A stretch of DNA of 25,673 bases from the NCBI GenBank assembly GCA_043827405.1, contig JBDRPD010000036.1, forward strand, positions 1 through 25,673. The letters are read 5' to 3'. This DNA is from Elusimicrobiota bacterium. GTDB taxonomy: Bacteria > Elusimicrobiota > Elusimicrobia > UBA1565. Positions 3,001-18,000 of this stretch are shown here, one piece after another (positions within the stretch are counted from its first letter, which is position 1; every line of letters begins with the position of its first letter). The position numbers were made by a program.

Positions 3001-6000
3001 TCCGGGGTTGGTCCGGGGTCCACCAAGGTTTCGGCGTAGGAGCGCCGCTCCTCCTCCGGGCCGCGTTCGAGCGGGTCCTCCTTGCGGCGCTTCTCCTGGC
3101 GCAGACGGTCGATGAACAGGTTGCGGATGATGCGATAGAGCCACTGCTCGACCTTGTAGGAAGGGTCGTAGGTGTGAAAGCTCTTGAGTACCCGCAGCAT
3201 CGCATTTTGCACCAAATCCCCGGCCGCTGCCTGATTTCCGGTGAGGTGAAAAGCCACCGAATAGGCGTACGGCGTGTAGCGTTCGACAATCTCTTTGGCC
3301 TGTTCCACGTTGTTATGTGACCGTCGCAGACGCCTCTGGGTGCTATACGAGCGGGGCCGCGCGGTTATTTCAGCCAATTTTGCCTTCCCCAGCAAGCGGG
3401 GGTCCTAGGTCCCAGGTGATTAGGGGCCTTTTTATATGAGGAATTTTCCTGAAAGACCCATCCCATTCCGGGCATTTTGCAGTATTCTGGACTCCCAATG
3501 CGGAGACCCCTGGAGGCGCAGATGCTTACGTATTTTCCTAATAGAGACACCCTTAAGAAGCTTCTATCCTGCGGTATCGCCGTGTCGCTGACGGCCTTAT
3601 CCCCCGGGATCGGTTCATATCAAGCCTGGGCGGCCAATATCGTCGCCGTACCCGCCAAGGTCGCGGCGCCCAATGTCCGCGTCGGGATGGTTCCGGGAAG
3701 CGTCTCCGCCAAGCCTCTTTCCCTGGACACCTCCGTCTCCGCCGGCATCGGGCTGAAATCCGCGCTGCCCAATGTGGGTTCCGTCGCCATGCAGTCCGGG
3801 ATTTCGGCGCCCTCAGTTAAGACCGCGCCCGTCATTTCGCCGGTGGCGAAGACCGTGCTCAAGCAGGCGGCCGCCGTCGGTTCAAATGCGGCCGGCCGCG
3901 CGGTTAGGGAAGTCGAACAAAAGACGCGGATGCAGAAAGGCGTGATCGGGCGGCTGACAAGCGCCGTCAAAGCGCTGCCCAAGATGCTCAGCCTGCAGGG
4001 CGGTTCGCTCAAGCAGGCCGCAGGCAATAATTTCGATAACGGCGCGGTGCGGCCCGCGCGCGGCAGCGTCCCGGCTTCTTGGAATTTCAAAGCCGCGCGC
4101 AACGGTCTCGGCGGAGGCGGCGACTTTAACGCTCCGCAGCCCGGGAAGGACGCGCAGGCGATGGCGCTGCTCAAGGAGCTGCGCAAGGGGCTTGAGCCCG
4201 GCGACCGTGTCGCGGCGAGCTACATCAAAGGGGCGGCGGCGCTCCTCGGCGTAGCGCAGGACGAGGTCATCCGCCGGCTGACGATCCTGACGAAGTACGG
4301 CTATTTCGCTTCGCTGCATAACGGGAACTTTATATATACCGACCTCGTTGATCGCGCGGAGGACGGAGATGACGAGAATGTTCGCGCCGCGCGCGTCATG
4401 GCGAAATACGGGACGCTGCTCCTCAACAGCCGGACGACGATCGACCACGTGCGGTCCTTCTTCCAGCTCAACGACGCCGCCCGCAAATTGGGCGACGACG
4501 CCTCGGGCAAGACGCCCCACGCCGACTACCGGCAGACCGCGATTCTCCGGGACAATGCCGGCCTGACCGTGCTGCGCGATATCCTCAAGCAGTACGACGG
4601 CGTGCTCGCGCAGGAGAAGGGGGCGGCTGCCGCCGCCAAGCGGCAAAAGATCGGACCGATCCTAGCTTACATGAGCGAGTCCTATTTCGATATCGCGAAC
4701 AATCCCGCGCCGCTTCCCGCGGCGCACGCCAAAACGCTCAGCGAGCTGGTCGAAGGCTTCGATAGGGAAGTCTTTTTCAGCGATAAGAACTATAAGCAGA
4801 TAAACGCGGCCTTGATGCTGCTGCCGAAGTTTATCGCGCAGCTCCAGGCCGGAGCGCGCAGCGACATCGCTCCCCAGAGCGAGAGCACGGCGCTGGTGCC
4901 GTCGGACCAGACCGTCGGGCGCCTGCCTGAAGAGACGCGCGAAGGCTTCGCCAAGGAGCTCCGGCAGGGGTTCCAGCCCGGCGAGGAGGTCTCGGCGGAG
5001 ATGCTCGGCCTTATCGGCGAGTCGCTGCAGCTCGGCCCCAAGGAGCTGGCCATCGCCAAGATGGAGATGACCTACTTCGGTCACTTGGCCCGGACCGGCA
5101 ATGGCCGCTATATCCATGTCGCGCTTGATAAGTCCGCAGGCTCGGACAAGGAGCTCAACGACGCCTCAATGAAGGCGCGCACCGGCTACCGGCTCATGAG
5201 CGAGGGCAAGCTGGAAAGCAGTGCCGAGGCCCTGCGCATGCTGAGCGAGGCGCATAATACCTTCCAGGAGCGCATGGCTCAGGGCAAGGACAGCGCCAAC
5301 CGCCTGCAGACCGAGGTCCTGCGCGACAACGCCGCCATGGACCTGTTGCGCGGGCTGCTGCAGGACGCCAAGACGCCGTCCGACGGCGCCATACTCAAGA
5401 CGCTCGAGACCGCCTTGTATTCCGTCGACTCTAAGCAGGGCGCGCGCGTGGCGGCGGAGTCGCCGCTCAGCCCGGGGCAGTGGAGCTCTCTCCAGCCCGT
5501 TATCAGCCGGCTGGCCGCCCGCAAGGATCTCGCCCACCTCCGCCCGGGAATCCAGGTGCTGGCGAAATTCGCGGCTGACCGCGATATCCCCGCAGCGCCG
5601 GCGGCGGCGCCCGGTCCGAGCGAGGCCGCCAAGAGCTTCCCGGTCATCGCGGATACCGACAAGTCCTACGCGAACCTCAACAAGTACGGGATCAATATCA
5701 CCGGCAAGGCGGCGCGCGGCGAGTATCATCCGCTGATCGGCCGGCGCAAAGAGATCCGGCAGATGCTCAAGACCCTGCTCCGGGTGGAGAAGAACAACCC
5801 GGTGGTTATCGGCGAGAAGGGCGTCGGCAAGACCAAGGTGGTGGAGGGGCTGGCGCAGATGATCGTTGACGGCGACATCCCGCAGCTCAAAGACATCAAT
5901 ATTTTCAAGCTCGACGTGACGGCGCTCGTCGCCGGCACCAAGTACCGCGGCGAGTTCGAGGAGCGCCTAAAAGGCGTGATCGACGAGGCCAAAAAGGGCA

Positions 6001-15000: not shown

Positions 15001-18000
15001 CGCTGAGCTGACCCAGCGGGCGGTGGAGAACGGGCAGGAAACCCGGCGGGTGCAGCTGCTGCAGATGCTCAAGGCGCTCTCCCTCTACGAGGCCTATATC
15101 ACCGTTTACCAGCGGCAGATGGCGCAGATGGACCTCGAGGCGGCGGAGGCGGGTCCCGAGGAGTTTTCCGCCGATTCCCGGACCGCCGACCCGGCGCGCT
15201 GGTCCCTGTTCGGCCTGCGCCGCAAGGCTGATCGGGCGTCGTAATTCTCTGATTTTTTTGCCATAATTCCTTCCAGGGCCGTCCTCCGGCCCGAGTGGCT
15301 GCTTATGAAAAAAGTGCTGGTTGTAGACGATGATGCCATGGTCGTAGAGTTTCTTATTGCCTGCCTGAAAAAGGAAGGCTATGAGACCCAGGAAGCCTAT
15401 GGCGGGGAGCAGGGCTATAAGCGGGCGGTATCATTCAAGCCTGATTTGATGGTTCTCGATTTGATGATGCCCGACATGCACGGCTTCGACGTTTGCCAGA
15501 CGGTCCGCAGCGATCGCTCGCTCAACGAGATGAAGGTCCTTATCTCCTCGGCGAAGGGGTATGAGGTCGACAAGAAGGCCGTCCAGCGCCTCGGCGCCAA
15601 TGGCTATATCAATAAGCCTTTCGGCGCGGAGGAGTTCATAAAAGAAGTTGAAGGCTTGATCGGCAAGCCATGAGCGGCATTCGGGTTCACTTTTGGGGCA
15701 CGCGCGGTTCGATTCCTGTTCCCGGCAAGGGTACCGTGCGCTACGGAGGCAATACCTCCTGCGTCGAGATCAACGACGGCAAGAACCTGTTCATCTGCGA
15801 CTGCGGCACCGGCATCCGCGAACTGGGACGGCGCATCATGGCGGAGACCAAGGGCGCGCCGGTCGAGGTCGCCCTATTCGTCGGTCATACGCATTGGGAC
15901 CATATTCAGGGCTTCCCCTTCTTTATCCCCGCGTACCTGCCCAAGAATAGGGTCCATGTCTACAGCGTCAAGGCCGTAGGGGACACTTTTGAGAATATTC
16001 TTCGCGGCCAGATGGGCATGAACTACTTCCCGGTCGAGGTCGGGGATATGCAGGCGCAGATCGAGTTTAAGCATACCTCGGCGGAGTTCGAGGTCGGCGG
16101 CGTCAAAGTGCGTACGATGTATACCAATCATCCGGGCGTGAACGTCACGTTCCGCTTCGACTATCCTGGCGGCAAGTCGGTGGTTTATTTGACGGACCAT
16201 GAGAATCATCAGGCGTTCGGCGGGAAAAACGAGCTGATGGTGCGCCAGGACGATGCGATCGAGGAGTTCTGCCGCGGCGTCGACCTGCTGATCGCCGACT
16301 CCCAGTACAGCGACGCGGACTACAAGATGAAAAAGGGCTGGGGCCACAGCCGCTGGCGCGACGCGCTGAACCTGGGGATGGCGGCGGGCGCCAAGCGCCT
16401 CGCCCTGTTTCATCATGAGCCGGACCGCAACGACGACGAAATCGACAAGATAGTTCAGGAGTGCCGAGAGGTTGTTAAGGCCTCTGGGAGCAAGCTCGAT
16501 TGTTTCGCCGCATCTGAAAATGAGGAGGTCATTCTCTGATATGAAACTGCTGCTCAGTCTGTTTACGACATCCATCGGCAAGAAACAGTTCGTCGCCGCG
16601 ACGGGTCTGCTCTTGATCGGCTTCCTGCTCGGTCATTTGACGGGAAACCTCCTGATCCTGAAGAGCCCCGAGCTCTTCAATCAGTATGCGGATTTTCTGG
16701 TCCATCACCCGCTGATCATCCCCGCGGAGATCGGCCTGGTTGTGCTGTTTTCGGCACATATCGTAATGGGGCTCAAAATCAGTATTGAAAATTGGAACGC
16801 GCGTCCCGACGATTACGACTACAAAGTCGCGGAAGGCGGCCGCACGGTGGGCTCGGCGACCATGAAGTATTCGGGCCTGCTTACCTTTGTGTTCTTGTGC
16901 GTGCATCTCTCCACCTTCAAGTACTCGCATCCGGGCGCGACGCTCTACGATACTGTGGTTATTTACCTGAAAATGCCGCTTTACTGTGCGTTCTACTTAT
17001 TGGCGCTGACGTCGCTGGGTATCCATCTGAGCCACGGCATAAAGAGCGCCTTCCAGACTTTCGGCGTGAGCCATCCGAAGTACACGCCGGCGATCGGCGT
17101 CGCCGGTCTGCTGCTCGCGGTCGCGGTCACGGCGGGTTTTCTGCGGCTGGCGCTGCACGGGATTATAGGGGGCTGAGCGATGACATCAACCGAGAAGCTA
17201 CTGAACGCGAATATCCCCGACGGGCCCATTGAGACGAAATGGGACCGCCATCAGTTCAATCTAAAGCTCGTCAACCCGGCCAATAAGCGCAAATATGATG
17301 TTATCGTCGTCGGTACCGGGCTGGCCGGCTCCTCCGCGGCGGCATCGCTCGCCGAGCTGGGCTACAACGTCAAGGCCTTCTGCATTCAGGACAGCGCCCG
17401 CCGGGCGCACTCGATCGCGGCCCAGGGCGGAATCAACGCGGCCAAGAACTACCCCAACGACGGCGACAGCATCTTCCGCCTCTTCTACGACACGGTAAAG
17501 GGCGGCGACTACCGGTCGCGCGAAGCCAATGTCTACCGCCTGGCCCAGGTCTCCAATAATATTATCGATCAGTGCGTGGCGCAGGGCGTTCCCTTCGCCC
17601 GTGAGTACGGCGGGACGCTGGCCAACCGCTCCTTCGGCGGCGCCCAGGTTTCGCGCACTTTCTATGCCCGCGGACAAACCGGGCAGCAGCTGCTGCTGGG
17701 CGCCTACAGCGCGCTGACGCGGCAGGTGAGCGCCGGCAAGGTCAAGCTCTATACCCGGCGGGAGATGCTCGATCTCGTGGTGGTCAACGGCCGGGCGCGC
17801 GGCATCGTCTGCCGCAATCTCGTCAGCGGCAAGCTGGAGCGCTATGAGGCGCATGCGGTGCTGCTGTGCACCGGCGGGTATGGGAATATCTTCTATCTGT
17901 CGACCAACGCCGCCGCCTGCAATGTGACGGCGACCTACCGCGCCCACAAGAAGGGTGCGTTCTTCGCCAACCCCTGCTTCACGCAGATCCATCCGACCTG

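Follow-up and report, generated by a model that had tools for sequence, protein, structure and literature searches.

The window, a 25,673-nt stretch of the genome of an uncultured groundwater Elusimicrobiota bacterium, carries two large genes on the same (+) strand, 164 nt apart: g01165, coding for an Hsp100-type ATPase, and g01166, coding for a zinc protease. That both are real genes with intact catalytic motifs, as an earlier note on this locus assumed, was confirmed; a single contig of run X1 (possibly the source sample) covers 5939-15152 with 2 differences, and run X2 contains a related strain matching pieces of both. Their features are as follows, types 1 and 2 being two separate Clp clades.

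3522..10172, + strand: g01165, type-1 leader-bearing Hsp100, 2216 aa from ATG (ORF)
3522..3848, + strand: shared leader of g01165, ~95-110 aa (profile match, E 4e-14)
4149..5621, + strand: winged helix and helical bundle, two tandem units (AF2 model, structural match, internal repeat)
5679..6476, + strand: NBD1 (motif reading)
6489..7496, + strand: NBD2 and D2-small (Pfam, motif reading)
7050..7058, + strand: IGF ClpP-docking motif, residues 1177-1179 (motif reading)
7515..7619, + strand: hydrophobic anchor directly behind the Clp core (hydropathy)
7824..8687, + strand: Cof/class-II HAD phosphatase-like domain, residues ~1435-1722 (motifs, PDB)
8694..9101, + strand: hairpin and small soluble unit, copy 1 (68% identical to copy 2)
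9177..9671, + strand: mobile soluble module (comparison with relatives)
9699..10091, + strand: hairpin and small soluble unit, copy 2 (internal repeat)
10337..15244, + strand: g01166, leader-bearing polytopic HtpX/M48 zinc protease, 1635 aa (ORF, Pfam)
10337..10663, + strand: shared leader of g01166 (profile match, E 8e-18)
11129..12223, + strand: conserved ten-segment membrane domain without Pfam family (alignments)
12254..13381, + strand: M48 catalytic domain (motifs, alignment, Foldseek)
13499..15136, + strand: duplicated C-terminal zincin-like domain, an optional module (internal repeat)

The core of g01165, 43% identical to the ClpC of its own genome, has the two NBDs, Walker A and B motifs, sensors, Arg fingers and pore loops of a class I Hsp100/Clp ATPase. 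NBD1 contains Walker A at residue 764, the pore loop GTKYRGEF at 805, Walker B at 831, sensor 1 at 869 and Arg fingers at 884; NBD2 contains Walker A at 1049, the pore loop GYVG, Walker B at 1118, sensor 2 (GAR) at 1277 and the IGF/L loop characteristic of ClpA and ClpC. No middle domain was seen in the core, and Pfam gave no Clp_N among the 25 of 26 families listed, nor in the N-terminal segment alone. A ClpB/ClpG disaggregase is ruled out by the lack of a coiled-coil middle domain together with the IGF motif, and an FtsH identity was rejected in view of the two Clp-type NBDs and of no M41 match among the listed hits for g01165 and g01166. Re-scanning reproduced the Pfam domains and coordinates reported before, and the hydrophobic helices of g01165 were found again by hydropathy at 1342, 1742, 1766, 2077 and 2101.

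The extensions around this core, previously described as family-less, contain modules that recur across many relatives. The winged-helix region (AF2 pLDDT 86) resembles the VIA wHTH (Z 8.7, rmsd 1.8, 60 residues), is repeated internally together with its bundle (E 4e-11) and also occurs on leader-type Lon proteases of relatives; its two units are a candidate substrate- or adaptor-binding module. The position behind the Clp core, here occupied by the anchor, is the site of LspA-like or CAAX proteases in relatives. Farther on, the HAD domain shows the Cof-type DxD, S/T, K and GD..D motifs (DWDNT 1441, T 1479, K 1628, GD..D 1655-1664), conserved across 14 sequences, with PDB HAD matches at E 3e-5 and a Pfam score that by itself is below the cut-off. 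Copy 1 of the hairpin unit matched no family and gave no usable match in an atlas search, and in genome G010 the mobile module has its place at the N-terminal end of the M48 protein.

In g01166, an alignment-averaged scan detects 12 hydrophobic segments between residues 265 and 900. This polytopic protein has the HExxH, downstream Glu ligand and HP motif of the HtpX/M48 proteases (HEFSH 779, the third ligand E in REGHAD 909, THP 1000), HExxH and the downstream E being invariant in 35/35 aligned sequences, and the Foldseek rows of its M48 domain are ZMPSTE24/Ste24 (prob 0.99-1.0, E 6e-3 to 4e-2). The segment that follows the leader is on the same side, rich in K and R, as the catalytic loop. 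In addition to the HExxH at 779, the only one given earlier and here confirmed, there is a second one, HELTH at 1428, with a conserved ETERNAF; such a second C-terminal HExxH domain occurs in 5 other relatives (42 loci examined), and the PDB sequence matches of this zincin-like domain are coiled coil only. Relatives of g01166 are present in 72 of the 101 genomes of the order.

Both proteins, as well as those encoded by a second protease-Clp pair of the genome (g01691, g01692), begin with a shared leader of ~95 aa that the earlier note did not mention. Its first part looks like a Sec signal, with a basic n-region, a hydrophobic core, xPG and AxA; after this comes a segment rich in A, G, S and V that closes with L-P-S. 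Its profile matches 50 ORFs of the genome and none in three controls; by crude rules that capture pattern only, the n-region is positive in 46/50 and the AxA pattern is found in 41/50. These ~50 proteins, of 300-5,500 aa, include many cytoplasmic-type enzymes and transporters (Lon, MoxR, PPK2, glycogen synthase, RNB nuclease, 7 MFS domains). The leader raises a topology problem that had gone unnoticed. Neither of the two ClpP genes of the genome is among the 50. Leader genes cluster (13/50 have a leader neighbour, with runs of up to six in family f3), which explains part of the adjacency of g01165 and g01166, and they fuse freely (M48-MFS, M50-S8, HAD-MFS and a 5008-aa chain in G361), so that fusion is weaker evidence here than usual.

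A type-1-like core occurs in 29/101 genomes of the order. Thirteen type-1 proteins are membrane-anchored. An intramembrane protease is attached in ten of them (LspA-like in 6, CAAX in 3, M48 in 1), of which six contain the Clp core within a single ORF and four are fragments at contig edges; the remaining three, that of the window included, have an M48 gene next to them. Half of the six LspA-like matches are over the Pfam cut-off and half under, as is one of the two CAAX matches scanned. LspA (A8) has two aspartate motifs and a conserved Asn-Asp-Arg segment (GNxxDR); the 4 LspA-like rows that could be aligned properly keep both Asp motifs but differ in the D-R of that segment. Membrane proteases account for 6 of the 27 other polytopic leader proteins of the genome versus 4 of the 5-6 kinds of membrane module fused to Clps (post hoc binomial 0.01-0.025).

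All 11 relatives from families f1 and f2 with a detected type-1 gene or tail have one upstream of, or fused to, M48, with five gaps of <=23 nt; in G015 and G016 the two are separated by unrelated genes. The M48 gene has no type-1 neighbour at 7/19 f1/f2 loci and at 23/23 loci of the sister family f3, from which the pairing had rightly been reported absent. Most f3 type-1 proteins are soluble and without protease partner, and the upstream position in 12 of the 23 f3 loci is taken by a HAD-MFS-like gene, so that the Clp may have arrived by fusion to a resident HAD gene. The adjacency in the window might thus be a by-product, g01165 being a ClpP-engaging unfoldase and g01166 a stand-alone HtpX-like endoprotease, independent members of a clustered, module-shuffling set. 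The f3 loci, the wider distribution of M48 than of the type-1-like core, the N-terminal module common to Lon, the conserved IGF loop (see below) and the AT-rich 164-nt spacer, roomy enough for a separate promoter, speak for this explanation; matches to a promoter consensus in that spacer were not above chance. We nonetheless consider it rather unlikely, as three classes of intramembrane protease are fused to type 1 and a fourth to type 2, the single Clp-M48 fusion (G012) discarded both the M48 leader and the IGF loop, and the deep M50-Clp fusion described below would be left unexplained.

An IGF-like loop is present in 33/36 distinct type-1 genes, and the IGF motif is given as a requirement for ClpP binding in part of PMC5540906. 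Its retention, in g01165 as in these relatives, counts against the machine proposed earlier, an FtsH-like function split over two genes in which the ring threads its substrate straight into the membrane metalloprotease. Among the protease-fused type-1 proteins with a readable loop, 5/7 retain IGF; it was lost in G012 and in the LspA-like-fused protein of G023, losses that agree with direct feeding, as does the similarity of the M48 model to ZMPSTE24. The anchor of g01165 follows D2 directly, which would place the exit face of the ring near the membrane, again as direct feeding would have it; so short a tether on that face might get in the way of a docking ClpP. As far as is known, enzymes of the M48 and M50 families make single cuts as endoproteases and do not act as compartmental peptidases, and the type-2 protease stands at the entry side. 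FtsH-like feeding consequently seems to us improbable: the general idea of an unfoldase-protease association holds, inasmuch as Hsp100s are repeatedly tied to intramembrane proteases, but feeding into M48 is not supported as the rule.

The M50/Clp pair makes the stronger case. M50 and Clp share one polypeptide in 26/27 decidable relatives: at 20/22 loci of a first set (1 split, 1 undecidable) and in 6/7 genomes of a second (1 undecidable), two of them outside the order. This supports the view that g01691 and g01692 are a split copy of a conserved fusion, whose usual order is leader, site-2 (M50) protease, repeats and IGF-less double ring. The protease has HExxH (297 in g01691, as noted before) and NxxPxxxxDG intact in 23/23, as in site-2 M50 proteases, with mjS2P and SpoIVFB as best PDB matches. 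In the Clp part, the Walker motifs, Arg finger and pore loop 2 are invariant or nearly so (21 sequences), pore loop 1 is lost, an insertion occupies the middle-domain position and the IGF loop is absent from all 18 loops read. The protease lies N-terminal to NBD1, separated from it by a variable spacer of about 200 to >1,200 residues. The genome does contain the 2787-aa (g01692) and >1201-aa Clps and the ordinary 821-aa ClpC listed in the earlier note; of the two membrane segments claimed for g01692, one (202) is above the hydropathy cut-off and the second below. The >1201-aa protein is, however, an assembly-broken tail: contig C43, which carries it, and the end of C30 overlap by exactly 141 nt, so that it forms the C-terminal end of a fusion of M50 and Clp that is ~2,300 aa long or longer. 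As types 1 and 2 are separate clades, the two pairs do not make up a single system.

The reading that we tentatively prefer, while granting it somewhat less than an even chance, is a cut-then-pull removal of membrane proteins by leader-tagged Hsp100-protease sets. Hsp100 cores would have been recruited at least twice into the ~50-member set in this order of Elusimicrobiota. In type 2, M50 would cleave a helix within the membrane and the ring, if it assembles as a hexamer, would pull out the piece. In type 1, a ClpA-like ring without middle domain, tethered by its C-terminal anchor in f1/f2, would act next to an endoprotease in the membrane, in some cases the HtpX-like neighbour and in others an LspA-like, CAAX or M48 domain fused to it, and most likely hand the extracted substrate to ClpP through the IGF loop and not to the metalloprotease. 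The leader would probably carry the whole set beyond the producer cytoplasm to a site where ATP is available, for example in a host or prey cell. ATP-dependent enzymes carrying an export-like leader imply an energised compartment out there. Against this reading count the clustering and free fusion of leader genes, the M48 loci without Clp neighbour, the unrelated genes between the two in G015 and G016, the HAD-MFS-like gene in the upstream position of f3 loci, the mostly soluble f3 type-1 proteins, the sub-cut-off LspA-like and CAAX matches, the short tether where ClpP would dock and the loss of pore loop 1 in type 2. A bolder version, in which one leader delivers a complete ATP-dependent proteolysis kit to a host or prey cell, both to its cytoplasm and to its inner membrane, appears to us unlikely; the kit would comprise a new class of single-chain AAA+ protease, made of an intramembrane protease and an Hsp100 extractase, and an unfoldase with IGF that recruits the target's own ClpP.

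Alternatively, the rings might be translocation motors for leader cargo, the attached LspA-like, CAAX, S2P and HtpX proteases acting as leader peptidases on arrival. There is a known case of a ClpB-type motor that is exported and works at a membrane, Plasmodium HSP101 in PTEX (PMC6550532), one fused partner is a putative signal-peptidase-II homologue with both aspartate motifs, and the ~50 cargoes have a common second segment after the signal. Yet no conserved pore gene lies beside either Clp type, many genomes have a leader-tagged M48 without match to type 1 or 2, and the IGF loop would have no role in a translocon; we regard this alternative as very improbable.

Several known systems resemble parts of the cut-then-pull arrangement that we favour. 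Hsp100 rings are known to work alone, with DnaK or with ClpP. As in ClpA/ClpC-ClpP, both NBDs of the type-1 core are intact, and neither the two pore loops nor the IGF motif is missing; unlike those proteins, it lacks Clp_N (Pfam) and the middle domain and has an export-like leader, winged-helix repeats, a C-terminal anchor and fused HAD or protease modules. FtsH (M41) likewise combines a membrane-bound ATP-driven unfoldase with a zinc protease, in cis as in type 2 and G012, but with a single classic AAA ring instead of the double ring of the Clp clade and a soluble M41 chamber instead of an intramembrane M50/M48 protease, placed in type 2 at the entry side. ClpB/Hsp104 are presented without known protease partner in part of PMC5540906. 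The tLST island (ClpG, FtsH, HtpX, DegP) also groups an Hsp100 with an HtpX-like gene in a cluster for protein quality, and HtpX complements FtsH (PMC8290217, in part); its members are ordinary separate proteins, and leader, anchor and fusion do not figure in the portions of that source describing it.

Omnitrophota giant multi-enzyme proteins, for which predation has been proposed, combine signal peptide and TM helices with cytoplasmic-type domains (HAD, AAA, peptidases, starch synthase), whereas here such functions are split over ~50 proteins that have one leader in common; the main text of both preprints on these giants mentions 'Clp' 0 times. Plasmodium HSP101 of PTEX is a ClpB-type ring at a membrane outside the producer's cytosol; the Clps described here differ in their attached proteases, and no pore partner was found for them. 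The closest precedents for cutting and extracting are RHBDL4-p97 in ERAD (PMC9437926) and B. subtilis YqgP-FtsH (PMC7231995), which pair an intramembrane protease that cuts the substrate with an AAA+ motor that clears it away; here the proteases are metallo, aspartyl or glutamyl instead of rhomboid, the motor is an Hsp100 and the link can be a covalent fusion. A site-2 protease covalently linked to one Clp clade and three further protease classes associated with the other suggest that Clp parts have been assembled into a route resembling ERAD. The Hsp100-protease pairing in this lineage may represent an undescribed way to cut and extract membrane proteins, possibly inside another cell, which the natural fusions make testable as single proteins; an energised external compartment, if true, would provide new insight into the lifestyle of these uncultured groundwater bacteria.

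The open reading frames, Pfam domains and hydrophobic segments of g01165, a 2216-aa Hsp100/Clp protein, and of g01166, the 1635-aa polytopic HtpX/M48 zinc protease encoded next downstream, agree with their description in the earlier note. Every Clp motif is present in both rings of g01165; the middle domain is absent, and the ClpP-docking loop motif of the second ring (NBD2), IGF, lies at residue 1177. In g01166, the M48 zinc ligands are invariant across 35 aligned sequences. The high-probability Foldseek rows of its predicted model (pLDDT 80) are ZMPSTE24/Ste24, not at E<=0.001, a threshold at which neither predicted model had any match. 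Relatives with the full g01166 architecture are Elusimicrobiota, bar a few labelled only "bacterium", and beyond this phylum the search returned only 24-25% HtpX-like matches. Promoter and terminator scans yielded signals no better than shuffled sequence, and matches in two RNA runs were restricted to short conserved stretches, providing no evidence on expression either way. On the two sides of the pair, the window, which is contig C36 of the source genome, contains:

2380-3395, minus strand: ECF sigma factor and zinc-finger anti-sigma, divergent from g01165
15305-16539, plus strand: receiver-domain protein and metallo-beta-lactamase-fold gene, downstream of the M48 gene

Since the same sigma/anti-sigma pair occurs upstream of the locus in two relatives (G019 and G013), it may control the genes that share the N-terminal leader described below. 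The receiver-domain and metallo-beta-lactamase-fold genes, then sdh genes, follow the M48 gene in most relatives of family f1.

The extensions of both proteins, those of g01165 previously regarded as family-less, resolve into winged-helix, HAD and hairpin modules and a duplicated zincin-like domain. Residues 210-700 of g01165 are predicted to fold as two winged-helix-plus-bundle units; a structural match to an MIT-like bundle (Z 8.2) is within the range of common helical arrangements. In a phylum sample of 301 genomes, this N-terminal module of g01165-like (type-1) Clp proteins was detected only within the order. The module also stands N-terminal to Lon proteases in three genomes (G088, G090 and G040), at the following loci:

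L071:7918-10974, winged-helix-bearing Lon protease
L073:7379-10885, winged-helix-bearing Lon protease
L169:4741-8349, winged-helix-bearing Lon protease

Because the same module precedes Lon, it may serve to bind substrates or adaptors. In G040, the Lon gene and a type-1 Clp gene are in tandem. Residues 1435-1722 of g01165 constitute a Cof-type HAD (phosphatase-like) domain with four of four motifs. After it come two hairpin units and another module, whose place in the relative G010 is the M48 protein. The duplicated zincin-like domain, which bears a second HExxH, makes up the last 600 residues of g01166 and was seen in 5 of the 42 loci of relatives. No PDB sequence matched the N-terminal or the zincin alignment, and atlas searches gave no usable match.

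In a Clp tree, inferred by a quick method with SH-aLRT support only, the 31 rows of type 1 and the 9 of type 2, the clade of the 2787-aa g01692, form separate groups with support of 100 each. The pairs g01165/g01166 and g01691/g01692 (an M50 protease and its Clp neighbor on contig C50), proposed in the earlier note to be one kind of machine, are thus separate recruitments. The leader-type Clp of G066, which groups with housekeeping ClpC (support 82), is possibly a third. This protein (L168:5699-9676) has an N-terminal signal-like segment, a long extension and PGF in the loop.

The type-1 core had matches in 29 of 101 genomes of the order, including G066, and an IGF-like motif is present in 33 of 36 distinct type-1 genes, a tally that leaves out the housekeeping-like G066 gene and a duplicate from G054. 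Among the 19 relatives of families f1 and f2 with the M48 gene, the Clp is the next gene upstream in six and fused to the protease in one (G012, which has lost the IGF loop as well as the M48 leader); in two others a Clp-type tail lies directly upstream at a contig edge, in two unrelated genes intervene, seven loci lack a Clp and one is undecidable. The queries used found no type-1 match anywhere in the genomes of these seven. In family f3, most type-1 proteins are soluble, and tandem arrangements are frequent. None of its 23 M48 loci, one with less than 0.4 kb of upstream sequence, shows the Clp-M48 adjacency, and in 12 the upstream run of the M48 gene is occupied by a HAD-MFS-like leader gene. 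With adjacency distributed in this way, g01165 and g01166 might be simply independent neighbors, a reading that we consider rather unlikely and rank second. Of 13 membrane-anchored type-1 proteins, six carry an LspA-like domain (two rows of the motif alignment being mis-anchored), three a CAAX protease with intact motifs and one an M48 protease; the three without a fused protease, g01165 included, are encoded directly upstream of an M48 gene.

For type 2, the first ring was matched in 41 of the 101 genomes, and in 20 of 22 loci fetched the leader, the M50 protease and the Clp form a single ORF, which in the compact fusion of G061 is 2322 aa long; of the remaining two, one is split, its frames overlapping and the locus showing additional breaks, and the other is cut by the contig end. 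The fusion also occurs in six further genomes, two of them outside the order, one more being undecidable. The Clp of more than 1201 aa on contig C43, formerly counted as a third Hsp100, continues the M50 ORF of contig C30 through an exact 141-nt overlap, so that the adjacent g01691/g01692 pair represents a split second copy. A related-locus search with g01691 alone found none. Outside the order, a 5008-aa ORF (L258:2395-17421, in G361) combines a g01166-like zincin module, an M50 protease and a type-2 Clp core. All 23 type-2 proteins examined for them have intact M50 motifs, and IGF is absent from all 18 loops read, five others not having been extracted; pore loop 1 is replaced, and conservation covers pore loop 2 and the ATPase motifs. 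A GHKL-like fold of the C-terminal domain, guessed by eye, was unsupported by PDB or Pfam.

The type-2 protease is N-terminal to the first ring (NBD1), on the side where substrates enter an Hsp100 ring. This position is easier to reconcile with a cut followed by extraction than with threading into the protease. The IGF kept in g01165 implies that this Clp still expects ClpP. Both observations speak against an FtsH-like feed, in which the ring would pass its substrate into the membrane protease and which we hold to be improbable. We favor, albeit tentatively, a cooperation in which the membrane protease would cut and the Clp would then pull; in type 1, what is pulled out would end up in ClpP. 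Four intramembrane protease classes on two Clp clades exceed what the protease share of polytopic leader proteins would predict (p 0.01-0.025, post hoc, in a leader gene set where fusion is common). The two ClpP genes of the source genome, the only one examined in this respect, are leaderless. A translocon role for the Clp rings comes last, slightly behind the FtsH-like feed.

All four genes of the two pairs encode the leader, ~95-110 aa in which a Sec-like segment precedes an A/G/S/V-rich part. Among 12,188 ORFs, its profile, derived from inspection of long ORFs in the source genome, retrieved 50 at E<0.001. Reversed, shuffled and internal controls gave no match and demonstrate specificity only, since the profile was built from the same sequences. 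According to a Pfam scan of 48 candidates, the cargo includes enzymes (amylases, glycogen synthase, PPK2, RNB nuclease, Lon), transporters (seven MFS domains and an ABC transporter), further proteases (M50, M48, CAAX, HtrA, S8) and a MoxR adjoining a VWA/DUF58 giant. The latter two, a MoxR AAA ATPase and a 3386-aa VWA/TPR/DUF58 protein (L010:2848-14883, contig C91), are both leader-bearing: an additional AAA+ system in which each partner is tagged. Three f3 loci (L110, L123 and L131) contain up to six genes in a conserved series (ATP-grasp/MFS, M28 peptidase, unknown, HAD-MFS, M48, M50-S8) with leader-bearing homologues in the source genome.

As judged from its sequence, the leader looks like a Sec signal with a second segment. 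In g01166, the post-leader segment and the catalytic loop are on the same K/R-rich face; if cleaved, the signal would put the catalytic face outside the producer's cytoplasm. Clp, Lon and PPK2 require ATP, and the simplest reading of the set would be delivery into another cell. The source genome codes for three secretins over the cut-off and has 17 long matches to T2SSE/PilB/PilT-type ATPases, to neither of which a link with the leader was found, and for a single SecA, without an accessory one. It also has an isolated second SecY paralogue (C66:14697-15962), rejected as a dedicated leader translocon because two SecYs occur in no more than 4 of 62 genomes from the order.

The scheme proposed here would work like RHBDL4-p97 (PMC9437926) and YqgP-FtsH (PMC7231995). 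On the tLST island, ClpG and HtpX are encoded together but as two distinct proteins (PMC8290217). Our literature search, outside which lay most subscription papers and bioRxiv supplements, a possible source of such architectures, found no description of Hsp100-intramembrane protease fusions. The Hsp100-protease systems studied here differ from FtsH, canonical ClpA/C and ClpB in the features tested for each. The giant proteins of Omnitrophota resemble the leader set in combining cytoplasmic-type enzymes with a signal peptide and membrane helices (10.1101/2023.11.21.568195; 10.64898/2026.06.07.730766). We view the system as a new variation on AAA+/intramembrane-protease quality control, with a real chance of its being a class of AAA+ protease that is itself new and is directed at other cells.
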